Below are positions 39,054 to 55,570 of a stretch of 64,000 nucleotides of DNA, one piece after another. Below the pieces are notes generated by a model. The model saw nothing but the letters and a program-made list of their open reading frames with translations. It had not been told where the DNA came from and did no database searches. Each line of letters starts with the position of its first letter. The stretch's first letter is position 1. Origin of the DNA: a phage. Location of the stretch: assembly GCA_029944565.1 (NCBI GenBank), contig GCA_029944565.1_4115.1. One strand, 5' to 3'. Position numbers and translations under genes: made by a program.

Positions 39054-39056
39054 TAC

Positions 39057-39278: not shown

Positions 39279-39301
39279 GATTTTATTCCTTATTCTTTGA
39301 G

Positions 39302-39360: not shown

Positions 39361-39402
39361 GTACTTTTTTAAAAATAGTTTTCAGTACTGAATACTTATA
39401 TA

Positions 39403-39487
39403 ATAGATACATTTATGCACCCTGTGGGTCAGTGAGCTATCTCTCAATGAATATATAATAGCAAAGGGACTGACCGAAGTCAATCCC
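39403..39487 (-). promoter_or_regulatory. conserved intergenic element, copy 2 (promoter TTGACT-17-TATTAT inside UUCG hairpin, then conserved core)
   Basis: core at 39403-39432; hairpin gggactgac-cgaa-gtcaatccc at 39465-39487. Confidence 0.5.
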
Positions 39488-39501
39488 TTTTTTAATCTTT
39501 T

Positions 39502-40086
39502 TTATCGTGTTATAGTTACGGCTTTTACATCCCGCTTTTTATAGTACTGATTCCAGATATTGCGGGTTAAACCGTAATCAAGTACTTTAATAAGGCCGTT
39601 GCGATCCTGGCCGATATTCTGTTTTCTGATATCTCTTATCGTTAGTGTTGACAGTGTATCATCAACGTGTTGTAGTGCATCAGCAAAGCGGTGCTGGCGT
39701 TCAATTGCATTACGTTTAATATTGTACTTTAATTCGTTGCACGCGTTAACGTGCTTTACACTGCCTTTGCTTGCAGTACTCAACCGATCCATAACGATAA
39801 ACATATTATCAGGATCGCTTAAATGCATATGCACTTTAGCAAAGTACTGTTTCAATTGAGGGCGGTCATAGTCTAAAAAATTCCATACCTTACATTCAGT
39901 TTCATTTTGTTCTACACCCGCATCACAATTGGCGACCTTAATCACTAACCGATCATTTAAAGCGAAAACTATACGGGAAGATCCCGCCCCGATGATCTCC
40001 AGGCCAGCTAACCGACAAGCTGAAAGGATCTCTTTGTTGGTTTCCATTTCTGACAGTGTACGGATGAATTTAGTATAATTACGCAT
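39502..40086 (-). CDS. protein kinase-like protein (putative)
   Basis: glycine-rich loop IGAGSSRIVF then VIKV; catalytic-loop-like NIGQDRNGLIKVLDYG; start MRNYTKF with SD aaggag. Confidence 0.4.
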   Translation of the reverse strand: MRNYTKFIRTLSEMETNKEILSACRLAGLEIIGAGSSRIVFALNDRLVIKVANCDAGVEQNETECKVWNFLDYDRPQLKQYFAKVHMHLSDPDNMFIVMDRLSTASKGSVKHVNACNELKYNIKRNAIERQHRFADALQHVDDTLSTLTIRDIRKQNIGQDRNGLIKVLDYGLTRNIWNQYYKKRDVKAVTITR

Positions 40087-40114
40087 TGCATGTTCTCCTT
40101 GAGTTAATGAAACT

Positions 40115-40143
40115 ATATTACAGTACTTTACTATCAATTGCAA
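40115..40143 (-). promoter_or_regulatory. early promoter (TTGCAA-17-TAATAT)
   Basis: hexamers on minus strand. Confidence 0.5.
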
Positions 40144-40360
40144 CTACTTTTTTAACATTAACGGCGTGGATCACTTCCTTAGTGTTTTTAGTACTGAATA
40201 CTTTCGCCGCTCCTTGTTCGACCGTGATACGATAGCGACCATTAACATCAACCATATTAATAAAGTCCGGCGTGCTGAATGGTGTTGTTTTACATTTCAG
40301 TACTGTTAACAATTCCACCAGCGATGTAGTTTCTTTGATACGTTTTTCTAAAGTAATCAT
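40118..40360 (-). CDS. hypothetical protein
   Basis: 80-aa ORF. Confidence 0.55.
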   Translation of the reverse strand: MITLEKRIKETTSLVELLTVLKCKTTPFSTPDFINMVDVNGRYRITVEQGAAKVFSTKNTKEVIHAVNVKKVVAIDSKVL

Positions 40361-40389
40361 TTTGTTTTTCCCCGTGTTGGTATGTACAT

Positions 40390-40418
40390 ATAGTACTAAA
40401 ACATTTGAGTACTGTCAA
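40390..40418 (-). promoter_or_regulatory. early promoter (TTGACA-17-TACTAT)
   Basis: ~60-bp block duplicated at 40640-40694. Confidence 0.55.
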
Positions 40419-40637
40419 TTAGATAATTGCATATTTCTTTAAAGATAATGCGTCTTGGGTTGGCTGATACTCAATGCCGTTACCGTTATCTACTTTAACT
40501 AATAAACCTTTGTCAATTAGTTTTTTAATAGTCCTTTGGCCTTGTTGAAAATTGGTAAAATGTGAATCATTACGAAAGGTATAACCGTGCTTAACTGCTT
40601 CATCAATAGTTTTCTTTTCGATTTTAGATAATTTCAT
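40419..40637 (-). CDS. hypothetical protein
   Basis: start MKLSKIEKK; track ORF extended upstream. Confidence 0.55.
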   Translation of the reverse strand: MKLSKIEKKTIDEAVKHGYTFRNDSHFTNFQQGQRTIKKLIDKGLLVKVDNGNGIEYQPTQDALSLKKYAII

Positions 40638-40665
40638 TTTGTTTCTCCCGTGTTGGTATGTGTAC

Positions 40666-40694
40666 ATAATACTAAAACAATTGAGTACTGTCAA
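40666..40694 (-). promoter_or_regulatory. early promoter (TTGACA-17-TATTAT)
   Basis: duplicate of 40390..40418 block. Confidence 0.55.
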
Positions 40695-40945
40695 CGTGAT
40701 ATTAGTTTTATTTTCTTATTATATTGTTGGTGTTCATATAGGTTTATCTTTCCTGTGTTCTCAATTACTATTCTGTTGTTAGTGTCTACATCGATTACAC
40801 GCAGTTTTCCGTTGCTTAACTTCCTTGGTAATAGGTTACCATTAATAAACTCATTAGCAAGCTGTACGGCCTTTGTGATGATTCTCTGTGGTGCTTTATA
40901 GTGTACCCGCAAGATATTATCTTTAGATAGTTGTACCTTAATCAT
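40691..40945 (-). CDS. hypothetical protein
   Basis: 84-aa ORF. Confidence 0.55.
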   Translation of the reverse strand: MIKVQLSKDNILRVHYKAPQRIITKAVQLANEFINGNLLPRKLSNGKLRVIDVDTNNRIVIENTGKINLYEHQQYNKKIKLISR

Positions 40946-40959
40946 TTTAGTTTATCCTA

Positions 40960-40986
40960 TAAAAAAGGCGGGAACTGATCCCGCCG
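40960..40986 (-). terminator. rho-independent terminator
   Basis: hairpin ggcggga-actga-tcccgcc followed by UUUUUU on minus strand. Confidence 0.55.
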
Positions 40987-41007
40987 TGTTGTTAGTACTG
41001 CAAGTTA

Positions 41008-41403
41008 TTAGATAACCTGGCGGCGTTTACTGTATACTGTTACACGATTACCCTTACGGTCGTGTCGGATCTCTTTCTGGTTGCGTACCAGTTCACTTGG
41101 ACGCTTAAGGTTTGCCAGGTGATCCGCGTGAGTCCAAGCGGTATGGTTTGTCTGTACTTTGATATCAGAATCAGCGATAAATTCATCTTGTGCGTTAAGT
41201 ACTGCCGCCAGTAAATCCGCTCGTTTTAGTTCTGCTGCTGTTAGTACTGGCTCCGGTGAATTCACGATATCAGAGATTTCTTTGAACTGTACGGCCCAGC
41301 GTTGACCTTTCGGTGCATCTTTGCCCATGTCTTTAAATGCTGCTCCTTCCTCGCGTGCAACAATACGGGCAGCTTCACGGGTAGCGTAGAATTTAGTAAT
41401 CAT
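41008..41403 (-). CDS. hypothetical protein (paralog of 52725..52991)
   Basis: shared YATREAARIAAR, FKDMG, DRKGNRVTVY; start MITKFYATRE. Confidence 0.6.
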   Translation of the reverse strand: MITKFYATREAARIVAREEGAAFKDMGKDAPKGQRWAVQFKEISDIVNSPEPVLTAAELKRADLLAAVLNAQDEFIADSDIKVQTNHTAWTHADHLANLKRPSELVRNQKEIRHDRKGNRVTVYSKRRQVI

Positions 41404-41447
41404 GGTATACATCCTATTAGTTGAGTTAGTACTACAAGTTAGAGTCT

Positions 41448-41476
41448 ATTATAAAGTACTATCTGGGCAATGTCAA
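41448..41476 (-). promoter_or_regulatory. early promoter (TTGACA-17-TATAAT)
   Basis: perfect hexamers. Confidence 0.65.
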
Positions 41477-41498
41477 ATAGTACTTTAAATGGATTCTA

Positions 41499-41822
41499 TT
41501 ACATGTCTTTCTTACGTTTTACATCGTTGTATCGAACTGTTATTTCTTTGTTAATCTCTTTTTCGATGCGGTGAATAACTTTTTCTTTCGGGTTGAAACC
41601 TATAACGGTTTCTTTAATGATCTCCAAGCCCGTGTATTCGCCTTGTGTGCCGTAACCGTATGTAAAGGTTTCATGTCCCAGGTCTTCCCAACGATCACCA
41701 ATTAACGCAGACACGTAGCAAGAGTGGTAAGTATTGCCGTGTGAATCAGTCCACCGATTAACTTTAATGTCAAAGGAGGTTACAATTTTCAGTTCTACTT
41801 TCTGGGCAAGGATCATAGCCAT
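41499..41822 (-). CDS. hypothetical protein (paralog of 48459..48782)
   Basis: shared RWTDSxGNTYHSC, FTYGY, DVKRKKD; start MAMILAQ. Confidence 0.6.
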   Translation of the reverse strand: MAMILAQKVELKIVTSFDIKVNRWTDSHGNTYHSCYVSALIGDRWEDLGHETFTYGYGTQGEYTGLEIIKETVIGFNPKEKVIHRIEKEINKEITVRYNDVKRKKDM

Positions 41823-41844
41823 TTTTATTTCTCTCTCTTTGTTA

Positions 41845-41907
41845 GGAGGGGAACCGTTTCCCCTCACTTGATGTAAACTATTATACAGTACTAAGATACT
41901 TTGTCAA
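41845..41907 (-). promoter_or_regulatory. early promoter (TTGACA-16-TATAAT) plus leader hairpin
   Basis: hairpin gaggggaaccgtttcccctc. Confidence 0.7.
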
Positions 41908-41910
41908 TAC

Positions 41911-42093
41911 TTATTTTTTGGAAAGTTTACGCATTAATTCTACGCTTTCTTGTGAACGTTTTGCTACCTGGCAAGCTGCATGGACAGTAAACATTTTTGT
42001 ATAGTCTGACGGTTTGCCACCGAACCGAGCGGCACGTTCACGGGCACTTGGAACTAATACGATTTCTTTCTTACAGATAGTGCATTTAGCCAT
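41911..42093 (-). CDS. small Cys-containing hypothetical protein
   Basis: 60-aa ORF MAKCTICKK... Confidence 0.5.
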   Translation of the reverse strand: MAKCTICKKEIVLVPSARERAARFGGKPSDYTKMFTVHAACQVAKRSQESVELMRKLSKK

Positions 42094-42113
42094 TTTTATT
42101 TCTCTCTCTTTGT

Positions 42114-42176
42114 TAGGAGGGGAACCATTCCCCCTCTCGATGTAAACTATTATACAGTACTAAGATACTTTGTCAA
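42114..42176 (-). promoter_or_regulatory. early promoter (TTGACA-16-TATAAT) plus leader hairpin
   Basis: near-identical copy of 41845..41907. Confidence 0.7.
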
Positions 42177-42179
42177 TAC

Positions 42180-42455
42180 TTAATTATTGTAAATGTCGTG
42201 AATAGTGATAAAGTTTTTACGACCGTAAACCTGCAAATCAATATCAATGTAGTGCTTATCTAGTACATCCTCGACGCTTAACGCGGTGTCGTGGATATCT
42301 TCGTAGAATTGAGGATCTACAATCTTGCTTAAGTCATCCGGCGTTAACTCATCGTTAAGCCGTTGAACCGCCTGGATATCTGCTTCACGTTTCCAGTCTT
42401 CCAGGTTAGTAGTCAGTACTTGTTCGATTTCGTTAGCTGTCAGTAGAATCCGCAT
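42180..42455 (-). CDS. hypothetical protein
   Basis: 91-aa acidic ORF. Confidence 0.6.
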   Translation of the reverse strand: MRILLTANEIEQVLTTNLEDWKREADIQAVQRLNDELTPDDLSKIVDPQFYEDIHDTALSVEDVLDKHYIDIDLQVYGRKNFITIHDIYNN

Positions 42456-42488
42456 TTTAATGTTTCCTTATCAGTGGTTGATGTAAGT

Positions 42489-42516
42489 ATTATACTCGTT
42501 TACTTTCTATTGTCAA
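42489..42516 (-). promoter_or_regulatory. early promoter (TTGACA-16-TATAAT)
   Basis: proximal of three tandem promoters. Confidence 0.6.
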
Positions 42517-42604
42517 ACTATTTTATCAGGGGAGGTTTTCTTATGTCTTACTCCTGGACTACTTAACGGGGTTACTTGTTTCGTTCCCCGTCCTGATGTA
42601 AAAT

Positions 42605-42632
42605 ATTATACTTGATTCTAAGTACAATGCAA
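42605..42632 (-). promoter_or_regulatory. early promoter (TTGCAT-16-TATAAT)
   Basis: second tandem promoter; 70-nt leader with hairpin acgggg-N14-ccccgt. Confidence 0.55.
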
Positions 42633-42662
42633 GTACTTTTTAAAAATAGTTTTCAGTACTAG

Positions 42663-42670
42663 CCACCAGC
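42663..42670. other. Chi octamer (CCACCAGC)
   Basis: exact 8-mer next to conserved element. Confidence 0.5.
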
Positions 42671-42675
42671 AAACA

Positions 42676-42755
42676 ATAGATACATTTATGCACCCTGTGG
42701 GCTGATTTGTTTCTATGCGTATATAATAGCAAAGGGACTGACCGGAGTCAATCCC
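42676..42755 (-). promoter_or_regulatory. conserved intergenic element, copy 3 (promoter TTGACT-17-TATTAT inside hairpin, then core)
   Basis: core at 42676-42704; hairpin gggactgac-cgga-gtcaatccc. Confidence 0.5.
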
Positions 42756-42769
42756 TTTTTCAATTATTT

Positions 42770-42919
42770 TTAAACTTGTTTCGGGTTGCGATAGGTGATA
42801 GCGTTCGGGTACATTTGTTTAATGTTATTCCATGCCTGGTTAACATTGTAACCACTTGAGCGAATCAGTTGGTTGCTACCGACACCTTGAAACACTACTT
42901 CGAATAAGAATTCTTTCAT
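42770..42919 (-). CDS. small hypothetical protein (~49 aa)
   Basis: ATGA-coupled to upstream small ORF; below ORF-track cutoff. Confidence 0.35.
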   Translation of the reverse strand: MKEFLFEVVFQGVGSNQLIRSSGYNVNQAWNNIKQMYPNAITYRNPKQV

Positions 42920-43092
42920 GCTTTCACCTCGCTATCTTCTTTACCTTTACGCCAGGACATTACTAATTGTTCGCGTTGCCATAAGTCGAGTGATACAAAA
43001 AGTTTTGCGGTATCACTTTTAGGATACTCGCCATTAGTACCTAACCGATAAAACAGATCTTTCAGTACTGATAATTCTACTTGGATCATTTT
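42916..43092 (-). CDS. small hypothetical protein (~58 aa)
   Basis: ATGA-coupled on both sides. Confidence 0.35.
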   Translation of the reverse strand, partial: KMIQVELSVLKDLFYRLGTNGEYPKSDTAKLFVSLDLWQREQLVMSWRKGKEDSEVKA

Positions 43093-43178
43093 ATTACTCC
43101 TGATTGCGTTAATACTTCTACTATTGCATGAATGATCATAAGTACAGCTAAAACAATAATCATCGGATTCATTTGCAT
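43089..43178 (-). CDS. hydrophobic micro-protein (29 aa, MQMNPMIIVLAVLMIIHAIVEVL...)
   Basis: SD aaggag 8 nt upstream; single predicted TM helix. Confidence 0.35.
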
Positions 43179-43195
43179 AAGCTGTACTCCTTATA

Positions 43196-43408
43196 TTAAT
43201 CTTTCAGCCAATGATCTTGAATGAATTTTTCACAGAATCCCTGTTTCATGGATTCTAACAGGCGTTCGCGGTGAGCGTTGGCAAATTGCTCAGTACTATG
43301 CGTTACGCCAGGCTGATAACGTGATACCCCATCCGGTCCGATGTATTGAACATCCCACGGTTTTTCATTAGTATCAGACCATTTACGAACGATTAGTTGA
43401 CCTTGCAT
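43196..43408 (-). CDS. hypothetical protein
   Basis: 70-aa ORF. Confidence 0.6.
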   Translation of the reverse strand: MQGQLIVRKWSDTNEKPWDVQYIGPDGVSRYQPGVTHSTEQFANAHRERLLESMKQGFCEKFIQDHWLKD

Positions 43409-43425
43409 TTTTCTTTCCTCTCAGT

Positions 43426-43485
43426 GGGGAGAATCATTTCTCCCCTTCATGTAACTTATTATACAGTACTAGATTACATTGTCAA
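43426..43485 (-). promoter_or_regulatory. early promoter (TTGACA-16-TATAAT) plus leader hairpin
   Basis: hairpin ggggagaa-tcat-ttctcccc. Confidence 0.7.
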
Positions 43486-43491
43486 TAGTTT

Positions 43492-43815
43492 TTATTCACC
43501 TTGTTTGAATTTAGTTTTCTCCATTGATTCCATGATTGCAACCAATACGCCGTGGATCTCGCTTAACGTGGAATCACTAAAAGCATTAATGAATAGTCGA
43601 TCATTCTCACGAATATTTTTAATGTACTTTTCAGCAGTAGTTGCGAATTCATTCAACGGTAGATCAAATGCTTTATCCCATGATGGATGGCGTAATTGTA
43701 ACAGTACTGGATTATCACGATCACCAGGGGAAAACGTACCAGTGATGAAACATACGCCCGGAATACTTTCGAACTGGCAACGGACTTCCTTTGTGATAGT
43801 AGTATGAATGTACAT
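43492..43815 (-). CDS. hypothetical protein
   Basis: 107-aa ORF. Confidence 0.6.
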   Translation of the reverse strand: MYIHTTITKEVRCQFESIPGVCFITGTFSPGDRDNPVLLQLRHPSWDKAFDLPLNEFATTAEKYIKNIRENDRLFINAFSDSTLSEIHGVLVAIMESMEKTKFKQGE

Positions 43816-43842
43816 TTATTGTTATCCTCTATTAAATTAATA

Positions 43843-44031
43843 TTACAGTTTATGAATCAATTCTTTATCTAAGCGATAGCGTACATTATTAATAGTAACG
43901 GCATTGTTTTTAATGCTACGCTGTACAGGTCCACCAGCAATAACAAACGTTGCTTTATTACCCCGAACAATGATAGCACTTCCAGGATTACCGAAATCAT
44001 CTTGTACTAAAATACTTGATAAGTTTTCCAT
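43843..44031 (-). CDS. hypothetical protein
   Basis: 62-aa ORF. Confidence 0.55.
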   Translation of the reverse strand: MENLSSILVQDDFGNPGSAIIVRGNKATFVIAGGPVQRSIKNNAVTINNVRYRLDKELIHKL

Positions 44032-44050
44032 TTTTTATTTCCTCTTAGTA

Positions 44051-44107
44051 GGGGAAGATGTTTCCCCTTGATGTAAGTATTATAACAGTACTGAAAACTA
44101 AATGCAA
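44051..44107 (-). promoter_or_regulatory. early promoter (TTGCAT-17-TATAAT) plus leader hairpin
   Basis: hairpin ggggaa-gatgt-ttcccc. Confidence 0.6.
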
Positions 44108-44110
44108 GTA

Positions 44111-44467
44111 CTATGATAAAATCATGATAGGATATTCACTATCGATCAGTACCTCGAATCCGAAACCTTCGTACCATTCTTTAAGATTGAAGGCGTTATC
44201 TTCTCCTGTATCGCATTCTAAAATGATACAATCTGAATCATCGGCGGCATCAATAAAGGCATTCATTAATTCGTTACCTTCACCATTGCCCCGACTATCA
44301 GGATCAACATAAAGAGAATCAATAAACGCTACACGGTCATAATCAAGATCCGGTGCAATGATTCCACGTTTAACAAACCAGTACTGCAATTGTGCTACTT
44401 TGCCCTGTACTTGATAGCCAGTGATCTCGCCATTGTCAGTAGTACGCGTGATATGTTGTATTCCCAT
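44111..44467 (-). CDS. GNAT-like N-acetyltransferase (tentative)
   Basis: LYVDPDSRGNGEGNELMNAFIDAA resembles GNAT motif A; by eye only. Confidence 0.3.
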   Translation of the reverse strand: MGIQHITRTTDNGEITGYQVQGKVAQLQYWFVKRGIIAPDLDYDRVAFIDSLYVDPDSRGNGEGNELMNAFIDAADDSDCIILECDTGEDNAFNLKEWYEGFGFEVLIDSEYPIMILS

Positions 44468-44496
44468 GATTTCAATCCTCAGTTAAGATATAAAAT

Positions 44497-44524
44497 ATTA
44501 TACACTATCTTTCAGTACTGTCAA
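44497..44524 (-). promoter_or_regulatory. early promoter (TTGACA-16-TATAAT)
   Basis: perfect hexamers, no leader hairpin. Confidence 0.65.
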
Positions 44525-44530
44525 TACTTT

Positions 44531-44788
44531 TTATCTCATAGATCTATGCCAACAATTACGCGGGGGACGTTTAAAAGTACTATCATGATCCTCCTGGCAA
44601 GTTATGCAGTACTTACATCCCTTAACGGCCTGGCGTCGATTCTCAGGGATTATATCGCCGCAGTCGAGGCAATGTATCAGTGATTCTATTTGTGCGTTAA
44701 TTTGCTTTCTAGCGTGGTTAACGGCGGCCTGAATCACTGCGTTAATCTCGTCTTGTTCGGCCCCATCTTTCGCGAATCCTACAGCCAT
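44531..44788 (-). CDS. TraR/DksA-family C4 zinc-finger protein (putative)
   Basis: CLDCG-N17-CKYCITC spacing (CxxC-N17-CxxC). Confidence 0.5.
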   Translation of the reverse strand: MAVGFAKDGAEQDEINAVIQAAVNHARKQINAQIESLIHCLDCGDIIPENRRQAVKGCKYCITCQEDHDSTFKRPPRNCWHRSMR

Positions 44789-45039
44789 TATTTTAACCTC
44801 ATTATAAAAATACTATAGTACTGTAATGCGACAATAATATTACTTGTTCTTACTTTTTCCAATCCACATGATACCACATATTCATCCCCATATGTGCGAA
44901 ACGATACACCATGAAAATTTTTATACACTTGCACTACTAATCATAACCTTTCGTCTAACCAACTGCATAGAATTATACTACTTTACGCAAATTGATCAAG
45001 TATTGATCAGATCATTTTTTGATCAATATTATACAGTTA

Positions 45040-45115
45040 CATTTGTGCACCCTATGGGTTAGTGACGTTCTCGTCTTGATGTAAGTATTATGCCAGTACT
45101 TGATGATATTGTCAA
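45040..45115 (-). promoter_or_regulatory. orphan promoter (TTGACA-17-CATAAT) with conserved transcribed core, no ORF downstream
   Basis: hexamers at 45087-45115; transcript begins acttacatcaagacgagaacgtcactaacccatagggtgc. Confidence 0.5.
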
Positions 45116-45119
45116 TAGT

Positions 45120-45317
45120 TTATTTTAATTTTTTTCTGTCATTGATTAATGCTTTCAGTACTATACTAATGATTTGCAATGATTCATCAATGACTATAAA
45201 ATTATTCTCTTTCATTAGATGATAGTTACCATTGATTGTATATTCTAAGGAGTACTGTTTACGTTTAATTTTTGATAATGTTTCTATTTGTTTTTGTACT
45301 GATTTCATGCTAATCAT
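45120..45317 (-). CDS. hypothetical protein
   Basis: 65-aa ORF. Confidence 0.5.
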   Translation of the reverse strand: MISMKSVQKQIETLSKIKRKQYSLEYTINGNYHLMKENNFIVIDESLQIISIVLKALINDRKKLK

Positions 45318-45393
45318 TGTTAAACGTCCTGTAACGCATTCTAACGAGATAAACGGTTTAGTACTGGCATTGTATAGGGTAATGAATTAAAGC

Positions 45394-45401
45394 CCACCAG
45401 C
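45394..45401. other. Chi octamer (CCACCAGC)
   Basis: exact 8-mer within hairpin agcccaccagcg... Confidence 0.45.
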
Positions 45402-45422
45402 GTTAACCAGTGGGCTATAATC

Positions 45423-45557
45423 TTACATCTTGCGGATAATCTTAACAGTATCTTTCACCGATTTACCGTCTTGCTGGCATTGCTCGATCATTGCGTATTG
45501 TTCTGCTGTAAGATCCTCGCCAGTTTTTGCCAGTACTGCGTCGATGAATGAATCCAG
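45423..45557 (-). CDS. small hypothetical protein (~44 aa)
   Basis: downstream of promoter 45602..45629; below ORF-track cutoff. Confidence 0.4.
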   Translation of the reverse strand: MDSFIDAVLAKTGEDLTAEQYAMIEQCQQDGKSVKDTVKIIRKM

Positions 45558-45601
45558 TGCGATCATTTTGTTTCTCTCTTAGGTTAAGTTAACTACTGTT
45601 T

Positions 45602-45629
45602 ATAAAACTTATTATACAGTACTATCAAA
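45602..45629 (-). promoter_or_regulatory. early promoter (TTGACA-16-TATAAT)
   Basis: perfect hexamers. Confidence 0.65.
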
Positions 45630-45665
45630 CGTTGTCAATATCTTTAATAGTACTGGTAATATATT

Positions 45666-45845
45666 TTAGCGGTAATCGTCGTATGCTTTATTCACCTGGC
45701 GAATGTAACTTTCAAAGGCTTCGTCTACCGTTTCATACTCCCGAACATAATCACCATAGGAAACTACATACATACCTTTTTGATCTTCAAACGACATGAT
45801 GATAGAATCCAGGCCGATGATTTCAGTTTTTGCGATGATAGCCAT
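45666..45845 (-). CDS. hypothetical protein
   Basis: start MAIIAKTEI with SD aaggaa; track ORF extends upstream. Confidence 0.55.
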   Translation of the reverse strand: MAIIAKTEIIGLDSIIMSFEDQKGMYVVSYGDYVREYETVDEAFESYIRQVNKAYDDYR

Positions 45846-45879
45846 TTTTAATTCCTTAGTAGTGTAGTTGATAAAAGTT

Positions 45880-45908
45880 ATTATGCCAGTACTATCAATC
45901 AGTGTCAA
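45880..45908 (-). promoter_or_regulatory. early promoter (TTGACA-17-CATAAT)
   Basis: same subtype as 45087..45115 and 48826..48854. Confidence 0.55.
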
Positions 45909-45928
45909 TAGTACTGTGATAATATTTT

Positions 45929-46141
45929 TTAGTTAATAATAGTCAGTGTAAAATTGTAATCCCCTGCCTGGTATAGTACTTTATCGCCGAACGTTCCAAC
46001 ACGTTTCATATTGCAATAGATACCCATAACACTTTTTACATCTTTGATATTCCGAACGCCAGTAATATCCTTGTTTAAATGATCGTGATCAGAAAATAAA
46101 ACTTGTTTTGCATTTTTCAGTACAGTGCAGATATTAGCCAT
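45929..46141 (-). CDS. hypothetical protein
   Basis: 70-aa ORF. Confidence 0.6.
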   Translation of the reverse strand: MANICTVLKNAKQVLFSDHDHLNKDITGVRNIKDVKSVMGIYCNMKRVGTFGDKVLYQAGDYNFTLTIIN

Positions 46142-46161
46142 TTTGTTTTCTCTCTGTTAGT

Positions 46162-46221
46162 GGGGAGAATCATTTCTCCCCTTCATGTAACTTATTATAC
46201 AGTACTATAATCTATTGTCAA
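46162..46221 (-). promoter_or_regulatory. early promoter (TTGACA-16-TATAAT) plus leader hairpin
   Basis: hairpin ggggagaa-tcat-ttctcccc. Confidence 0.7.
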
Positions 46222-46235
46222 ACTATTTTTTTATA

Positions 46236-46577
46236 TTATTCGAAATCTTCTGGACCGGACTGATAATCATCTTCACCGTATGCACTTTCTAACTTCTCGC
46301 CAGTGTGATCATCAGTTAGTGAATCATCCTCATAATTCACGTCTACGCCTACAATGTAAAACTGGCTATCGTCTGGATCATTGAAATTAATTTTCTGAAT
46401 GTTTACAATAACTGTATTGATGCCCAGGACACAGCCATCAGCCGTTACAAAGTACTGATAGTTTTCACAACCGCCTGAATTGAAACCGTAATTGATTTCG
46501 GCCCGACCATCATTTAAACGCAGTGCCTGGGCGATGATTTCGTTTTCAAAGTTAGATTGAGCAATTGAGATAGTCAT
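46236..46577 (-). CDS. hypothetical acidic protein
   Basis: 113-aa ORF, Asp/Glu-rich C-terminus. Confidence 0.6.
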   Translation of the reverse strand: MTISIAQSNFENEIIAQALRLNDGRAEINYGFNSGGCENYQYFVTADGCVLGINTVIVNIQKINFNDPDDSQFYIVGVDVNYEDDSLTDDHTGEKLESAYGEDDYQSGPEDFE

Positions 46578-46597
46578 GATTCGTTTCCTTATTACTA

Positions 46598-46656
46598 GGG
46601 GAAACCGTTTCCCCTTTCGATGTAAAACATTATACGCTTATTGAGATAGTTTGCAA
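46598..46656 (-). promoter_or_regulatory. early promoter (TTGCAA-16-TATAAT) plus leader hairpin
   Basis: hairpin ggggaaa-ccg-tttcccc. Confidence 0.65.
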
Positions 46657-46709
46657 GTACTTTTTATCAAATACTTTAAAATAGTTTTCAGTACTCAAAC
46701 ATTATACAA

Positions 46710-46792
46710 TAGATACACTCCTGCACCCTGTGGGCTAGTGAGCTATCTCTCAATGATTATATAATAACAAAATGGCTGACCGAAGTCAACCA
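46710..46792 (-). promoter_or_regulatory. conserved intergenic element, copy 4 (promoter TTGACT-17-TATTAT inside UUCG hairpin, then core)
   Basis: core at 46710-46755; hairpin tggctgac-cgaa-gtcaacca. Confidence 0.5.
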
Positions 46793-50728: not shown

Positions 50729-50796
50729 TAGTTACCAGGGGGAACCGCTCCCCCGTGCGATGTAAAATATTGTACAGTACTAAAAACTAATTGCAA
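50729..50796 (-). promoter_or_regulatory. early promoter (TTGCAA-16-TACAAT) plus leader hairpin
   Basis: hairpin ggggga-accgc-tccccc. Confidence 0.6.
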
Positions 50797-51038: not shown

Positions 51039-51058
51039 TTTCTTATTCCTTAGTTACC

Positions 51059-51114
51059 AGGGGGAACCGCTCCCCCTATGCAAAACATTATACGCGTTTA
51101 AAAACTAATAGCAA
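51059..51114 (-). promoter_or_regulatory. early promoter (TTGCTA-16-TATAAT) plus leader hairpin
   Basis: duplicate of the 50729..50796 block. Confidence 0.6.
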
Positions 51115-51147: not shown

Positions 51148-51176
51148 TTGACAACTGCATCCAGTACTGGCATAAT
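51148..51176 (+). promoter_or_regulatory. plus-strand promoter (TTGACA-17-CATAAT)
   Basis: hexamers read on plus strand; drives conserved-core transcript. Confidence 0.55.
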
Positions 51177-51182
51177 TACTAC

Positions 51183-51275
51183 ATCAAGACGAAACAGTCA
51201 CTAACCCACCGGGTGCCGAGATCCGTCTATTAAATGATTCAGTACTTAACAATAAAGGGGATCAATCGATCCCCT
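51183..51275 (+). ncRNA. candidate small RNA carrying the conserved promoter-proximal core
   Basis: no ORF; GAC-gaaaca-GTC hairpin then ACTAACCCACCGGGTGC; ends at hairpin ggggatc-aatc-gatcccc. Confidence 0.35.
51248..51275 (-). terminator. candidate rho-independent terminator
   Basis: same hairpin read on minus strand is followed by UUUAUUGUU after stop of 51281..51502. Confidence 0.45.
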
Positions 51276-51280
51276 ATGTA

Positions 51281-51502
51281 TTACTTAGTAAGGTATAAAC
51301 AGAAGTCACCTTTATTTGCTACGCCGCCAGTGTAACGCGATGAATAGTTAGAAACGTCCTGGACTTCTGCTATTACCAGTGTATCATCATTCAATTCGTC
51401 GCAGAAGCAAACGGCTGGATCTTTTACGCCGATCTTGTCGGCATGTTCCCGCATAGATTTAACCAGTGCTTCCAGTTGAGAAAGAGTAGTGATATTAGCC
51501 AT
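51281..51502 (-). CDS. hypothetical protein
   Basis: start MANITTLSQ; track ORF extended through leader. Confidence 0.55.
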   Translation of the reverse strand: MANITTLSQLEALVKSMREHADKIGVKDPAVCFCDELNDDTLVIAEVQDVSNYSSRYTGGVANKGDFCLYLTK

Positions 51503-51521
51503 TGTATTTTCCTCATTACCA

Positions 51522-51580
51522 GGGAGAACCATTTCTCCCCTCTATGTAAACTATTATACAGTACTGAAAACTAATTGCAA
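51522..51580 (-). promoter_or_regulatory. early promoter (TTGCAA-16-TATAAT) plus leader hairpin
   Basis: hairpin gggagaaccatttctcccc. Confidence 0.65.
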
Positions 51581-51586
51581 GTACTT

Positions 51587-51775
51587 TTAATTAAATTCCA
51601 TAAAATCATTCTCAACGTGCACAACAATTTGATTGTTTTTAAAGTCCGCAGCGAACTCGATGCAATCATAAACCGCTTTTTGTGTTACAATGCTATGAGT
51701 ACCAATCGGATTAATAGGGGATTGAATTGTTTCAATCTCGTTCCCTTGCTCATTAACAATTAAAATATTAAACAT
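51587..51775 (-). CDS. hypothetical protein
   Basis: 62-aa ORF; SD aggag. Confidence 0.5.
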   Translation of the reverse strand: MFNILIVNEQGNEIETIQSPINPIGTHSIVTQKAVYDCIEFAADFKNNQIVVHVENDFMEFN

Positions 51776-51813
51776 CGCTGTTACTCCTGGGTAGTGTTAA
51801 CTCGATATAAAGT

Positions 51814-51841
51814 ATTATACGCCTTTATTGCTTAGTGTCCA
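51814..51841 (-). promoter_or_regulatory. early promoter (TGGACA-16-TATAAT)
   Basis: hexamers on minus strand. Confidence 0.5.
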
Positions 51842-52038
51842 GTACTTTTTAAAACATATTCATAAACACTACGCACATCATTGATCATCGCCTGGCGGTT
51901 AGCAGGTAACGCACCAGGATCGCCACTATCCCAGGCATTGATAAAACTCCCCAAATCATGAAAGATTTTATTCTGTAAGCCGATTAACTGCAATTCTTTT
52001 TCTTCAAGCTCTTTGATACGGTCAATTAAAAGACTCAT
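51832..52038 (-). CDS. hypothetical protein
   Basis: start MSLLIDRIKE with RBS ctgaggattatcta identical to next gene. Confidence 0.5.
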   Translation of the reverse strand: MSLLIDRIKELEEKELQLIGLQNKIFHDLGSFINAWDSGDPGALPANRQAMINDVRSVYEYVLKSTGH

Positions 52039-52055
52039 TAGATAATCCTCAGTAC

Positions 52056-52337
52056 TTAATTGTAAGATCCGCAACGGTTACAATAGTGCCCGTCTTCCTC
52101 GTCAACGAATTGACCGACGAAATTATCTACTTTCTCTTTGAGATTCTGATAATTGTTTTCAACTTCCTTTAGACGTTCCTGGTAGTATTCCAGGGCTTGC
52201 ACATACGCCGCCTCAGCCGTTTTCGCTCTTAAGGCTAAATTCATGCCACGCGTTTCATCGTACATCCAAAAGCCATCGGTGCACTCACTGATTGACAATG
52301 ATTTGGTTAACACTTTATAGTCAATTACTTTGCTCAT
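52056..52337 (-). CDS. hypothetical protein
   Basis: start MSKVIDYKV; C-terminal CNRCGSYN. Confidence 0.5.
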   Translation of the reverse strand: MSKVIDYKVLTKSLSISECTDGFWMYDETRGMNLALRAKTAEAAYVQALEYYQERLKEVENNYQNLKEKVDNFVGQFVDEEDGHYCNRCGSYN

Positions 52338-52393
52338 TAGATAATCCTCAGTAAAGGCGGGAACCACACCCGCCATTGATTCAGTACTGAATG

Positions 52394-52633
52394 TTACATT
52401 CCAACCATTGCAGCACGGATCGCCGTAGTGCTATACTTGAATCCGTCCGGTGTTGTAGTAGTACCGTTGGCTTTTAATCTGCGGTACATACATTGGGCCG
52501 CAATATCTTTAGTTTTACATTGTGCGATGCAACTTTGAGCAAGCCGATATAATGACTCACCGTTATTAATCCACAATGAAACATTCCAATGAGTTTTGTT
52601 TTTGTGCCCGTTGTAAGTTTTAGTAGTAGCCAT
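52394..52633 (-). CDS. hypothetical protein (paralog of 53077..53316)
   Basis: shared GHKNKTxWNVSLWINN and TPDGFKYSTTAIRAAMVGM. Confidence 0.6.
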   Translation of the reverse strand: MATTKTYNGHKNKTHWNVSLWINNGESLYRLAQSCIAQCKTKDIAAQCMYRRLKANGTTTTPDGFKYSTTAIRAAMVGM

Positions 52634-52655
52634 TTTTAAATCCTCGTTTAATTGA

Positions 52656-52717
52656 GCGGGAGAACCATTCCCCCGCCTCGATATAAAGTATTATACGCTT
52701 TTAAACTTAGTTTGCAA
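52656..52717 (-). promoter_or_regulatory. early promoter (TTGCAA-16-TATAAT) plus leader hairpin
   Basis: hairpin gcgggagaaccattcccccgc. Confidence 0.65.
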
Positions 52718-52724
52718 GTACTTT

Positions 52725-52991
52725 TTATTCAAGTACTGCGATCTTTTTAATACGGTACACGGTCACGCGGTTGCCCTTTCGGTCGAGCTTTATTTCTACC
52801 ACTCGACGCGATACACTATCAGGACTTTTCAACGCCGCTAACCAGTACTGTAATGATCTGGCGGTACTACGCTTTACAATGGCCCAACGTTTACCACGTT
52901 CCGATTGTACGCCCATATCTTTAAACGTTGCCCCGTCCTGGCGTGCGGCGATCCGAGCTTGTTCACGCGTCGCAAAATACTTAATATTCAT
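52725..52991 (-). CDS. hypothetical protein (paralog of 41008..41403)
   Basis: shared FATREQARIAAR and DRKGNRVTVY; start MNIKYFATRE. Confidence 0.6.
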   Translation of the reverse strand: MNIKYFATREQARIAARQDGATFKDMGVQSERGKRWAIVKRSTARSLQYWLAALKSPDSVSRRVVEIKLDRKGNRVTVYRIKKIAVLE

Positions 52992-53022
52992 GCTGTTGCC
53001 CTTATCGTTGGTGTATGAATAA

Positions 53023-53060
53023 AACACTATTATAAAGTACTATCGCAAAAAATGATAGTA
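53023..53060. promoter_or_regulatory. perfect palindrome AGTACTATC-N9-GATAGTACT next to a -10-like TATAAT
   Basis: 9-bp inverted arms upstream of 52725..52991; candidate operator. Confidence 0.35.
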
Positions 53061-53076
53061 CTTTAAATCTATTCTA

Positions 53077-53316
53077 TTACATTCCAACCATTGCAGCACG
53101 GATCGCCGTAGTACTGTACTTGAATCCGTCCGGCGTTTTATCTTGTCCAGTCTGTTCTAAAAATAGCATCATATGACGGGCCGCATCATTGCGATTAGTG
53201 TTAGCGGCAATAAAGTCCTGGGCCAACCGGTATAATGATTCATCGTTATTAATCCAAAGGCTTACATTCCATTGAGTTTTGTTTTTGTGACCTAAGAACA
53301 TTTTTGATTTAGCCAT
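53077..53316 (-). CDS. hypothetical protein (paralog of 52394..52633)
   Basis: identical C-terminal 19 aa. Confidence 0.6.
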   Translation of the reverse strand: MAKSKMFLGHKNKTQWNVSLWINNDESLYRLAQDFIAANTNRNDAARHMMLFLEQTGQDKTPDGFKYSTTAIRAAMVGM

Positions 53317-53337
53317 TTTTAAATCCTCTTAATTATA

Positions 53338-53396
53338 GTGGGGAACTATTCCCCACCTGATGTAAAACATTATACGCTTTTAAACTTAGTTTGCAA
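53338..53396 (-). promoter_or_regulatory. early promoter (TTGCAA-16-TATAAT) plus leader hairpin
   Basis: hairpin gtgggga-actat-tccccac. Confidence 0.65.
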
Positions 53397-53410
53397 GTAC
53401 TTTTTAAAAC

Positions 53411-53773
53411 TTATTCGTAAATCTTGCCACTGTCAGCCCATACCAGGAAACGAGGCATATTATCCCATGCATCTTGCTTTAAATTTAAACCGTGTAATAC
53501 TTCTGTACTTTCCATTCCTGGTACTGGTTTACTATACACCGCAAATAGTTCACCCATATACTGATAAGCCATCGTTAAATCACTGGCGATCATCTTATGG
53601 ATCATCGCATCAAGCATCACGGTAGCGGCGTATTGTTCACGCTTAAGCGGTAACATTGCAATAAGTTCCCGATAAGCTGAAATGTGAATTTTTACCGTTT
53701 CAGCCGGAAGACCTTTCATCTCTTCACGGAAGTTAACCAGGTTAGCAATAATTTTATTGATTTGAGTCGCCAT
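53411..53773 (-). CDS. hypothetical protein
   Basis: start MATQINKII; track ORF extended through leader. Confidence 0.6.
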   Translation of the reverse strand: MATQINKIIANLVNFREEMKGLPAETVKIHISAYRELIAMLPLKREQYAATVMLDAMIHKMIASDLTMAYQYMGELFAVYSKPVPGMESTEVLHGLNLKQDAWDNMPRFLVWADSGKIYE

Positions 53774-53797
53774 CGTTTTCATCTCTCTTACAGTGTA

Positions 53798-53856
53798 GCG
53801 GGAAGTGTTCCCGCTCTCGATGTAAAACATTATACGCTTTTAAACATAGTTTGCAA
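53798..53856 (-). promoter_or_regulatory. early promoter (TTGCAA-16-TATAAT) plus leader hairpin
   Basis: hairpin agcggga-agtgt-tcccgct. Confidence 0.65.
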
Positions 53857-53886
53857 GTACTTTCTACATGTACTTTTAAAATAGTT

Positions 53887-53975
53887 TTCTTTCTATATAG
53901 GAGTACTATTATTCAGTACTGCAACCATCCAGGGGAACTATCTTTCTATATAGGAGTACTATGATTCAGTACTGA
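53887..53975. repeat. two ~33-bp direct repeats (tctttctatataggagtactatNattcagtactg)
   Basis: copies at ~53889-53920 and ~53942-53975. Confidence 0.6.
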
Positions 53976-54136
53976 ATCAATCCACCAAATCATCCCGATA
54001 CCCCGTAAAACGGCCTCAGACGCATTCTAACGCATTAATACACCTAAGCTATACATTTGCACCATTCCAATCATTCCAGGGCTTTACGGGCCGTTTAAAC
54101 GCGTTAAATTATTTTCAATTATTTTGTTTTTAGCTA

Positions 54137-54164
54137 TTGACTCAGTACTGAAAAAGCGTATAAT
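54137..54164 (+). promoter_or_regulatory. plus-strand promoter (TTGACT-16-TATAAT)
   Basis: hexamers on plus strand; followed by conserved-core transcript. Confidence 0.55.
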
Positions 54165-54351
54165 TACTATATAGACGCGAGAAAGCGGATACCCCAGGGG
54201 GTGGGAAGATCCGTCCAAAATTCAAGATATAAAAAAAGGATAGACTCCCGCACCCTAGCAGGTTAACGCACTTTCTCAGTACTGAATTATAGTACCATAG
54301 TCCGGCCCAGGATGGCAAGCAAATTAATTAAAACTTTTTTCATCCAGGGTA

Positions 54352-54380
54352 TTGCTTTATTTTTCCAGTACTGCTATAAT
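54352..54380 (+). promoter_or_regulatory. plus-strand promoter (TTGCTT-17-TATAAT)
   Basis: followed by GTC-gagaaa-GAC hairpin and CCCACCGGGTGCATAGTTGTATCTA core. Confidence 0.5.
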
Positions 54381-54477
54381 ATTTTTATCAAGTCGAGAAA
54401 GACTCTAGCCCACCGGGTGCATAGTTGTATCTAAAATTCAGTACTAGATTATTTTTTAAAATTATTCATCCAAGCGG

Positions 54478-54506
54478 TTGACATACCAGGCGAAAACGGG
54501 GATAAT
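54478..54506 (+). promoter_or_regulatory. plus-strand promoter (TTGACA-17-GATAAT)
   Basis: hexamers on plus strand, no ORF downstream. Confidence 0.5.
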
Positions 54507-54599
54507 GATTCCAGATTCAGAAAAATCTAACTCCAGATACTGCGGGGAAACCATCCCCACGCGGTAGGGGAACTATTGGAAAAAATAAAATAAAAATTT

Positions 54600-54770
54600 T
54601 GATTTAGCCGTCTATACATCCAGACGTGTAACCATCTAGCCGTTTAGCCGTCCAAACGTCTAGCAGTACAGCCATCTAGAAATCTAGCCATCCAGCCGCC
54701 TAGAGGGATAGCCATCTTTACTTCCAGCCATCTGGAGGTCTAGACATCTCTACGTCTAAATTTAACCTAG
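54600..54770. repeat. iteron-like cluster of short GC-rich repeats (CCATCTAG / CGTCTA / TCTAGC)
   Basis: at least 10 degenerate units with CTAG cores in 170 bp, GC-rich against AT-rich background. Confidence 0.6.
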
Positions 54771-54914
54771 GGTTACTACACCCAAAATCCGTCAGTACTA
54801 TACCATAGATCTATCTTTTGAAAGGGAGTATTCAGTACTGCCATCATAGCCCTCACTATGTTACCCTAGGAGGATGAAGACTATCATGTAGTACTGAATA
54901 CTGTTAGGGGGAAT

Positions 54915-54934
54915 CCACCAGCACAAGCTGGTGG
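54915..54934. other. back-to-back Chi octamers CCACCAGC-acaa-GCTGGTGG
   Basis: perfect 8-bp inverted pair, Chi in both orientations. Confidence 0.55.
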
Positions 54935-55570
54935 CATAATGCTTTAGATTAAAATCAGTACTGACACCATTCTGTTAATATCAGTACTGTTATTACGATT
55001 TTCATATGAGGTTCAAAAAGATGTACCACCACAGGAGGAACTATCTTTTCTGTACTGTCTCACGACAGGAGGTAGAGTAAATGAATTGTTCGCAGCAACT
55101 CATCACCCTATGTAGAACATTATACAGTACTGAATCATAATGTCAATAACTTTCTTTCACCATTCAGTACTGATATTCTTGAGAACTACCCGACTACAAA
55201 CATCATTATATCCCACAAATCATAAACGTCCCAACGTAAATTTCAACTTTCGAAGATCCAACTTTTATTTCATAGGTACTCCAAAATTTTTAGGATCGAG
55301 ATTTAGAATGGAGTACTAACCAACTTTTTGCTGGAGCCTCAAGGGGTAATGGAATTTTACCCCGAAGGGTAAAAGGGTAATTGTAATTAAGGTGAAAGTA
55401 ATAATTCAGTACTAATCATTGCGTGATTACTTTTGATTACATTTGATGTAATTTGCAAAATGGAAAAGGAGCTTGGAAACTACAAAGTACGGCAGACTTC
55501 CTCTGCCTACTTAGTGGCATATCAGTACTGCTACGTTCTTGATTAAACGTGAACATTCCTGTACTCTAGT

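Follow-up and report, generated by a model that had tools for sequence, protein, structure and literature searches.

Lambda-type nut sites and the HK022 put RNAs are promoter-proximal leaders of processive antitermination, while T4 oriF and oriG work through promoter-initiated R-loops and T7 needs transcription from phiOR toward the concatemer junction. RNA anti-CRISPRs (Racrs) are short hairpin RNAs located behind a strong promoter in phage genomes, which titrate a protein partner in a dose-dependent manner (PMC10651486). PeSLs, composite promoter-terminator cassettes of T4-type phages, consist of a promoter and a stem-loop without a conserved RNA motif; they occur where small early genes are crowded together and insulate each of them by fusing a stem-loop to a sigma70 promoter of early type (PMC2839356, PMC4122927). 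In Pseudomonas phage PA5oct, distantly related to the RaK2 group, the terminal repeat encodes two highly transcribed, single-copy RNAs of 236 and 451 nt without open reading frames (ORFs) (PMC7318152). These systems are the closest described counterparts of a structured RNA unit found in a stretch of phage DNA of 64,000 nucleotides (GenBank assembly GCA_029944565.1, contig GCA_029944565.1_4115.1), hereafter the window, in which a sequence-only reading had proposed four plus-strand promoters between positions 51148 and 54560 as sources of candidate non-coding RNAs.

Three of these promoters (A, B, and C) precede a module of ~57 nt composed of a 5′ hairpin (SL1), a linker, a core hairpin (H2), a G, six nucleotides, and the segment YRYCY. 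Comparison of the unit formed by promoter and module reveals an undescribed multi-copy RNA family that is restricted to the terminal repeat and present across RaK2-like jumbo phages. The units are read here, with a probability of about 0.45, as self-contained early small-RNA genes whose products would act in trans by binding a partner.

The layout of a promoter followed by a hairpin RNA, the non-coding character, and the titration-type mechanism proposed for the units recall the Racrs, and a promoter lies within 250 bp upstream, the distance used as a Racr criterion, in 60 of 60 units. However, the units are unlike host CRISPR repeats, number ~10 per genome, occur in the terminal repeat alone, and carry a covarying 5′ hairpin and an alternative pairing. 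With the PeSLs they share a setting of many small early genes, a single swap of the transcribed part (unit B of the window versus phage TH47) may reflect cassette exchange between close relatives, and a sigma70 promoter overlapping a terminator stem-loop is found at the units at 36.7, 39.4, 42.7, and 46.7 kb; in contrast to the PeSLs, their strongest conservation lies downstream of the transcription start. As in nut and put sites, a promoter-proximal RNA just past terminators carries a purine-loop hairpin (GAGAAA, GCGAAA, AGAACAA) that recalls boxB, whereas the units lack boxA, arrange their elements in another order, are oriented independently of genes, form convergent pairs, and include copies without a downstream gene. 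No N-like protein was identified for them, no boxA (CGCUCUUUA-like; YGCTCTTW) was found within 120 nt after any unit, and a nut-like antitermination reading fails on boxA and orientation. The T4 origins and T7 phiOR may be comparable to promoter D and the outward-facing units in being promoters with a non-mRNA product beside replication or terminal elements, but they are not known to have a conserved RNA fold or a multi-copy family. PA5oct offers a precedent for RNA genes in a terminal repeat, although its RNA sequences bear, on reading, no visible resemblance to the unit motif.

Promoters and RNA Units in the Window

The four plus-strand promoters proved to be real, three of them matching the consensus at 11 of 12 positions and the one at 54352 at 9 of 12 with a perfect -10 hexamer, and they do run opposite to all surrounding genes, as had been stated, the closely packed ORFs between ~35 and 60 kb lying on the minus strand.

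51148-51176, plus strand: promoter A, TTGACA-17-CATAAT, extended -10 TG, 11/12
54137-54164, plus strand: promoter B, TTGACT-16-TATAAT, 11/12
54352-54380, plus strand: promoter C, TTGCTT-17-TATAAT, 9/12, with TGc as extended -10
54478-54506, plus strand: promoter D, TTGACA-17-GATAAT, 11/12

Promoter A, with a predicted transcription start at ~51181-51183, is retained in phages TH47 and fEgEco12, as is promoter C, which falls below the -35 threshold of the scan. Promoters B and D keep their -35 and -10 hexamers in both relatives while their spacers are replaced (in D, the entire spacer), a pattern that indicates selection for promoter activity. In the terminal repeat, matches of 11/12 or better are strongly enriched (25 found versus 1.3 +/- 1.2 in shuffled sequences), and loose matches between 48 and 58 kb show no enrichment in this AT-rich DNA (36 found versus 35.4 expected). 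Two other 11/12 plus-strand matches, at 40050 and 52292, lie inside minus-strand genes and may be antisense promoters or chance matches.

The core CCCAnnGGGTG occurs 11 times in the window with at most two mismatches, versus 2.5 occurrences expected, and eight of these sites are true copies, three on the plus strand and five on the minus strand (36646-46758), to which one degenerate copy is added. A covariance model built from 60 copies, with which the window was searched with filters off, recovers exactly these eight at 42-63 bits, together with the partial copy, and nothing else above 20 bits in the 64 kb.

51181-51237, plus strand: RNA unit A, 54.1 bits, E 6e-14
54169-54225, plus strand: RNA unit B, 42.1 bits, E 2e-10
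54229-54257, minus strand: degenerate partner B′ (AGGGUGCGGGAGUCUAUCC, then U7), partial hit of 19.4 bits, E ~1e-3
54385-54441, plus strand: RNA unit C, 54.4 bits
46702-46758, minus strand: gene-strand RNA unit, 57.2 bits
45026-45082, minus strand: gene-strand RNA unit, 53.6 bits, with an 11/12 promoter whose -35 is at 45115-45110
42669-42724, minus strand: gene-strand RNA unit, short form without SL1, 57.6 bits
39396-39452, minus strand: gene-strand RNA unit, 60.6 bits, with its promoter at 39483-39455
36646-36701, minus strand: gene-strand RNA unit, short form, 63.1 bits

The conserved core named in the sequence-only reading is confirmed for those at 51148, 54137, and 54352 and is missing at 54478, where the covariance model gives no hit downstream; promoter D is not a member of the family but a separate conserved promoter, and the four cannot be treated as one class. 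The assignment as non-coding RNA is likewise supported by comparison for three of the four units, on the grounds of a promoter at fixed distance, a covarying SL1, two double compensatory changes in the core hairpin, and wobble-only, strand-specific variation, and not for 54478. Nor is an antisense position the essence of the family, or the plus strand its defining property, since the five full copies at 36646-46758 are co-directional with the genes.

In unit A, the SL1 stem is formed by GAC at 51188-51190 and GUC at 51197-51199, H2 by A-CCC-ACC-GGG-U at 51204-51214, and the 3′ strand UCCGUCU lies at 51222-51228. Unit B has the variant core ACCC-CAGG-GGGU and the SL1 CGC-GAGAAA-GCG, and stands tail-to-tail, with a gap of 3 nt, with B′, which has a weak promoter-like site on the minus strand (54318-54289, 9/12). 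Unit C combines the SL1 AGUC-GAGAAA-GACU with the core GCCC-ACC-GGGU and the alternative helix H3 as GGGUGCA/UGUAUCU, and its 3′ side reads AUCUA..UAGAU followed by UAUUUUUU.

The statement that no ORF over ~25 amino acids follows the promoters was not borne out, as plus-strand ORFs of 33 (51234-51335), 40 (54312-54434), and 29 amino acids (54478-54567) exist; single-nucleotide indels disrupt the 40-residue frame in close relatives, and the 29-residue frame starts inside the -35 hexamer of promoter D. Similarly, unit A had been described as a 51183-51275 unit ending at a hairpin, and the hairpin is there, but its T-run is on the minus strand.

51256-51275, unstranded: hairpin GGGGATC-AATC-GATCCCC, a minus-strand terminator-like site

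This hairpin primarily terminates the convergent minus-strand gene at 51281-51532. On the plus strand, it is followed by the tail UAUGUAUU (free energy of -11.7) and is possibly a weak stop for unit A.

Structure and Conservation of the RNA Unit

In total, 69 distinct copies were collected, 60 of which are exact-core copies; the core pattern was relaxed in the later covariance-model search, which yielded informative core variants. All 60 exact-core units have a sigma70-type promoter upstream in the same orientation, with at least 9/12 matches throughout and at least 10/12 in 51 units, a score of 10/12 being reached by ~5% of random positions at the same loci. The -35 is TTGACA or TTGACT in 52/60, the spacer 17 bp in 50/60, and the distance from the end of the -10 to the core 21-29 nt in 56/60, so that the RNA is predicted to start ~14-22 nt before the core.

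SL1 is a hairpin of 3-5 bp in 43/60 units, while the remaining ones retain just an A-rich stretch. Its stems are diverse yet complementary (GAC/GUC, CGC/GCG, AGUC/GACU, UGAG/CUCA, GGC/GCC, ACCAC/GUGGU, GCCA/UGGC, ACCG/CGGU, UCCA/UGGA, and others), and its loops are rich in purines (GAGAAA, GCGAAA, AGAUAA, AGAACAA). The core that follows, R-CCC-(AYM/UNNA)-GGG-U-G, is nearly invariant and has a loop of 3 or 4 nt. Among the 69 distinct sequences, the inner pair of H2 is C-G in 67 and U-A in two, both of the latter being double compensatory changes to CCU...AGG, in phages CBB and Yen9-04; the outer pair is A-U in 35 and G.U in 34, one-sided breaks are not found, and RNAalifold picks the H2 helix.

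The alternative helix H3 can form when GGGUG and two more bases pair with the segment 6 nt downstream (YRYCY), displacing the RCCC strand. Its cells are paired in 91% of cases, versus 26-60% with the partner slid, its five inner pairs are 91-100% paired, and variation in its 3′ strand is confined to Y facing G and R facing U. The two helices, H2 and H3, exclude each other, and single-sequence ensembles divide between them. Since many of the pairs are G.U and the promoter is constantly on one side, the structure exists only in the transcribed strand, which argues for an RNA rather than for a site in duplex DNA.

Two further structural candidates were set aside. A long-range helix closing the 5′ and 3′ ends (AUAGA/AGACG with UCUAU/CGUCU) is frequent in single-sequence folds and is not counted as established, its partner-swap test being marginal (matched -3.99 versus swapped -3.63 kcal/mol, p ~0.035), and pausing stabilised by a hairpin (with G at -10 and, 10 nt past H2, Y/R as the pause position) agrees only loosely with the consensus.

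Distribution among RaK2-Like Jumbo Phages

The window is 90-93% identical between 51.0 and 55.5 kb to Asteriusvirus jumbo coliphages (UB, phAPEC6, 121Q, PBECO4), and its source is an Asteriusvirus-like (RaK2-like) jumbo coliphage of the 121Q/PBECO4 group. According to BLAST, base 1 of fEgEco12 corresponds to window position 55511, reading toward lower coordinates, and several GenBank records begin within a few bases of this position. The physical ends of fEgEco12 were established by PhageTerm and restriction digests, and its direct terminal repeat measures 20,993 bp (PMC13070987); the window from ~34.5 to 55.5 kb is therefore a direct terminal repeat of ~21 kb, and the physical genome end maps to 55511. 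This repeat is a series of small minus-strand genes of early type, mostly each with its own sigma70-type promoter upstream, and its final 1.7 kb before the genome end holds no annotated gene. In the complete genome of TH47 (352 kb), all 10 units lie within 88.9-104.9 kb, the block equivalent to the terminal repeat.

Pattern and model searches found the unit in 121Q, fEgEco12, Klebsiella RaK2, Cronobacter GAP32, Pectobacterium CBB, Yersinia fHe-Yen9-04, Serratia BF (one unit), and three uncultured viral contigs, and BLAST also matches Salmonella 7t3/SE_PL, Erwinia, and K64-1-type phage records. A 14-mer scan of viral contigs gave mostly chance hits, while a 25-position pattern led to a clean set. 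All 60 records with a unit are RaK2-like jumbo phages, in which the region is unannotated or lies under a ‘hypothetical protein’, and in none of the 60 is it annotated as RNA. In fEgEco12 (L121), the ‘hypothetical proteins’ g05 and g045 at 3278-3388 and 16836-16955 overlap RNA units or their promoters and have probably been called as ORFs in error; ‘hypothetical proteins’ also lie over RNA units in several further GenBank records.

Outside these phages, 185,579 bacterial and archaeal genomes gave two pattern hits, both in Bacteroidota and not above a chance expectation estimated by hand, and a BLAST search of 5,426 complete E. coli genomes gave no match to the unit. Rfam 15 gave no hit at gathering thresholds in the whole window, which is the scan that covers the minus-strand copies, and at E<=10 between 50700 and 55700 it gave two chance-level hits on the other strand, rpsL_ricks with 26 bits (threshold 60) and RT-6 with 17 (threshold 47). 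ARAGORN found no tRNA or tmRNA genes in the 64 kb, and the motif was not encountered in the papers on CBB, RaK2, fEgEco12, and Sharanji or in those on comparative genomics of jumbo phages.

Arrangement of the Units

Four of the five gene-strand units directly follow the terminator of the previous gene and have their -35 within the terminator stem. At these units (36.7, 39.4, 42.7, and 46.7 kb), TTGACT lies inside a GC-rich stem that is followed by a T-run; thus, the unit at 46702-46758 has its -35 TTGACT (-10 TATTAT) within the upstream GC-rich terminator-type stem-loop, and that at 39396-39452 within the terminator hairpin of the upstream gene. Promoters A to D and the 45058 unit have no terminator stem-loop at the -35. 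All five gene-strand units are spaced at 2-3 kb and stand ~100 nt upstream of the promoter of the next gene; unit A occupies the same type of intergenic slot in inverted orientation.

Nine convergent tail-to-tail pairs were found, distributed over seven loci, and in six pairs the 57-nt models are separated by exactly 3 nt. In the window, fEgEco12, and TH47, units up to ~5 kb from the genome end point outward and those farther away point inward, and the exceptions to the outward rule are the inward members of convergent pairs (B′ in the window, 3197 in fEgEco12, and 102815 in TH47). At the locus of unit B, the transcribed part is exchanged in TH47 for another family member between conserved flanks.

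Several features were observed around these units. Terminator hairpins of the form GGGATTGAC-TTCG-GTCAGTCCC with a T-run enclose the -35 of the next promoter (39491-39455, minus strand), and similar terminator-promoter modules of PeSL type occur near 36.7, 42.7, and 46.8 kb. At 39384-39326 (minus strand), an inverted repeat with a free energy of -7.9 kcal/mol, CAUUGUACU-UAGAAUCA-AGUAUAAUG, makes up the spacer of the gene promoter TTGCAT..TATAAT and precedes UUUUAU, with a like arrangement at 42.6 kb; such a spacer could stop transcripts arriving from the RNA unit upstream. In CBB, Yen9-04, BF, and uncultured relatives (L122, L123, L124, L125, L128, L129), the sequence after the units is AGTACTGTACA-N-ACAG(TA), in agreement with the pattern of a LexA box, CTGT-N8-ACAG.

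Proposed Function of the Units and Alternative Explanations

If the units are self-contained small-RNA genes, the host RNA polymerase would transcribe them at a high level from the start of infection. The products would be independent small RNAs and not leaders of the genes behind them, since units occur in either orientation, form tail-to-tail pairs, and include copies that face the genome end, where no gene follows. The conserved bases are paired with one another in a hairpin and the variable parts are stems, and the units are therefore unlike an antisense seed, which favours the binding of a partner over antisense pairing. The partner bound by the invariant hairpin may be a ligand or a conserved protein of phage or enterobacterial origin, and the RNA may act as a decoy or cofactor, with a possible conformational switch between H2 and H3. 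Prediction of early mRNA targets, which had been suggested as a check, is unlikely to be the right test for such units.

Several points weigh against this interpretation. The decoy or cofactor mechanism, with its putative partner, is a guess by elimination, and the copies on the gene strand may simply be 5′ leaders of the gene that follows. It was the search pattern that made the core nearly invariant in the 60 exact-core copies, and covariation cannot tell whether H2 or H3 is the functional state. Folding energy is unremarkable (z ~0 for unit C and the 39428 unit) and its z-scores do not single out the units, so that the case rests on comparison. No canonical intrinsic terminator follows most units on their own strand, the candidates for 3′ ends being weak or AU-rich sites, the shared hairpin after unit A, and the U7 after B′; accordingly, the units do not have the layout of classical trans-acting small-RNA genes, a promoter with a Rho-independent terminator whose GC-rich hairpin and U-tract set the 3′ end. 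Finally, the searchable literature holds no transcriptome or expression data for this phage group.

A more specific proposal, that of a new class of phage riboregulator, bistable (H2 or H3 around an invariant GGGUG) and of ~50 nt, with ~10 copies per terminal repeat and ~20 per packaged genome, serving as a general host-takeover or anti-defence device of RaK2-like jumbo phages, is less likely than not. The host polymerase would synthesise such an RNA in bulk on DNA entry, and the RNA would capture or re-programme a conserved enterobacterial factor, for which a defence sensor, an RNA chaperone, an RNase, and RNA polymerase are candidates.

In the main rival reading, the module would be a cis-acting 5′ leader or attenuator, with an H2/H3 switch set by a phage or host factor, in which H3 would be a weak terminator or pause hairpin and H2 its competitor, controlling how far transcription from the strong upstream promoter continues, either to the early gene that follows or, in the case of units B and C, to terminal cis-elements. 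The mutual exclusion of two conserved helices is what such a device would display, some copies have a U-run directly after H3 (L126:8948, L127:6898, L122:1225, L122:8693), most units have no separate terminator downstream, and the gene-strand copies are placed every 2-3 kb just past a terminator and ~100 nt before the promoter of the next gene. That same slot type, however, also holds an inverted cassette (unit A), the genes downstream own strong promoters, the H3 stems are mostly weak (~-4 kcal/mol) with A in place of a U-tract after them, no boxA-like element was found, and the cassette also occurs in fixed-gap tail-to-tail pairs and in copies that face the genome end with no gene beyond; an attenuator is considered less likely than small-RNA genes. 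Still less probable is a transaction of the genome end itself, in which promoters A to D would drive polymerase through the array of 8-bp repeats near the end and the terminal segment, for R-loop activation or priming of replication, for duplication of the terminal repeat, or for processing of concatemers, with the RNA stabilising the hybrid. This proposal chiefly concerns promoter D and the copies that face outward, and it draws on the outward direction of promoters A to D within 4.4 kb of 55511, on the switch of unit orientation with distance, on the convergence of promoter D and a 12/12 minus-strand promoter at 55146 on the 8-bp array, and on the almost invariant terminal 730 bp and the sign change of GC skew at ~55.5 kb. 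Nevertheless, five units lie 9-19 kb from the end and face away from it, it would be unusual for one repeat to contain ten dispersed origins or primers, a comparable conserved RNA structure is not known from T4-type origins, and nothing connects the CCC/GGG hairpin with hybrid formation.

At the DNA level, the unit might be a mobile cassette with a functionless RNA, either through PeSL-like shuffling of promoters and terminators or as a quasi-palindromic site, ACCC-N3-GGGT, whose duplex (ACCCNNNGGGT) would be bound by a protein. The -35 hexamers inside terminator hairpins fit the PeSL definition (PMC4122927), unit B is swapped for another family member between conserved flanks in TH47, and the core is nearly palindromic; yet half of the copies have a G opposite the T of the ‘palindrome’, which forms G.U pairs in RNA and is asymmetric in duplex DNA, and H3 relies largely on G.U pairs, which are C-A mismatches on the other strand. 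Together with covarying SL1 stems, an orientation relative to the promoter that is constant in 60/60, and the absence of a conserved transcribed motif from PeSLs, these properties render the cassette very improbable. A coding role would take GGGUG as a Shine-Dalgarno-like sequence and the AUG, GUG, or UUG six nucleotides on as the start of a minigene, and NUG is indeed found at the right spacing in ~40/60 copies, but AUC, CAC, or UUA stands there in 18/60, the frames run from 1 to ~18 codons (one being AUG-UAA) without a conserved peptide, GGGUG is paired in H2 and in H3, and conservation is at the nucleotide level, third positions included. Such tiny ORFs are scarcely credible, and minigenes, Shine-Dalgarno mimics, and coding micro-genes were rejected because frames vary in length and are broken by indels in relatives. 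The reading as a Racr, a solitary mimic of a CRISPR repeat that titrates Cas proteins, follows a like logic of several short hairpin RNAs per phage genome, each right behind a strong promoter (PMC10651486), and is close to refuted: there is no match in the 5,426 E. coli genomes, whose CRISPR arrays should be among the sequences searched, a 4-bp stem with a 3-4-nt loop differs from type I-E and I-F repeats, and alignment to these repeats is at chance, the best score of 10 being reached by 18% of shuffles. One copy is identical to the I-F repeat at 19/28 positions, which is a chance-level figure, and CRISPR-repeat mimicry was rejected as a candidate. A tRNA anticodon-arm mimic, a CsrA site, a ToxI-like antitoxin, and preQ1-type or other small riboswitches were considered and dropped for want of a match.

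Promoter D and the Genome End

Promoter D lies beside a group of elements that extends to the end of the genome.

54513-54575, plus strand: 5′ part of the D transcript, minimum free energy -20.9 kcal/mol, z -2.7
54603-54760, unstranded: tandem 8-bp array, ~19 units, TCTAGCCR-like, period 8
55146-55119, minus strand: 12/12 consensus promoter, reading inward from the genome end
54780-55511, unstranded: ultra-conserved terminal segment, whose position 55511 is fEgEco12 base 1

The 5′ part of the D transcript is near-identical in fEgEco12 and TH47 and comprises the hairpin AGAUU-CAGAAA-AAUCU followed by a GC-rich bulged hairpin, GCGGGG..CCCCaCGC, which corresponds to the structured segment ggggaaaccatcccc pointed out at 54544. 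The 8-bp array lies downstream of promoters B, C, and D and ~750 bp from the physical end, has one extra 8-mer in fEgEco12, and resembles iterons or a packaging or end-processing site. Promoter D is predicted to transcribe across this array toward the ultra-conserved genome end. In the opposite direction, the 55146 promoter has no credible ORF for ~1.3 kb and runs toward the transcripts that come from promoters B, C, and D; its own RNA would start with ..CAUAGGGUGAUGAG, one half of the family core. Between the window, fEgEco12, and TH47, there is almost no variation in the terminal ~730 bp, compared with ~90% identity in the flanks. Thus, the terminal 1.7 kb form a dense cis-regulatory region of converging promoters, an 8-bp array, and an invariant end segment.

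Within the terminal segment, the loop of a hairpin at 54908-54935 is inverted in TH47. GC skew changes from ~-0.1 to +0.2 at ~55.5 kb, exactly at the boundary of the terminal repeat, with minus-strand ORFs on both sides, so that the ORF array at 55.8-60.2 kb has a C-rich coding strand.

Other Features of the Terminal Repeat

The hexamer AGTACT, often within CAGTACTG or TTCAGTACTGAA, occurs 259 times in the window and is densest at 34518-55511, where 129 sites are found versus 5.7 +/- 2.4 expected. The sites lie in promoter spacers, to which they contribute the TG of the extended -10, immediately upstream of the -35 in gene promoters, and at a distance of a few nucleotides behind most RNA units, and the hexamer could be an operator for a regulator. 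Many small early genes have a short GC-rich hairpin (GGGGRA..TYCCCC) in the 5′ untranslated region (UTR) just before the Shine-Dalgarno sequence; this hairpin is present in every small early gene read within 50.7-53.9 kb and looks like a shared leader element.

39321-39300, 50738-50755, 51058-51073, 52656-52676, 53341-53358, and 53799-53816: examples of the 5′ UTR hairpin

Moreover, the two minus-strand genes for proteins of 79 amino acids at 52394-52633 and 53077-53316 share long stretches of near-identical DNA and are therefore paralogues within the terminal repeat.

Concluding Remarks

RaK2-like jumbo phages are widely isolated for therapy, and ~70% of their genes are without known function. 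For annotation, the gain is that the ‘hypothetical proteins’ overlapping the units in GenBank are probably spurious. If the reading of the units as early small-RNA genes is true, a multi-copy, promoter-driven, structured RNA would provide an experimental handle on the first minutes of infection by these phages, and one antisense oligomer directed against the invariant core could reach all copies.

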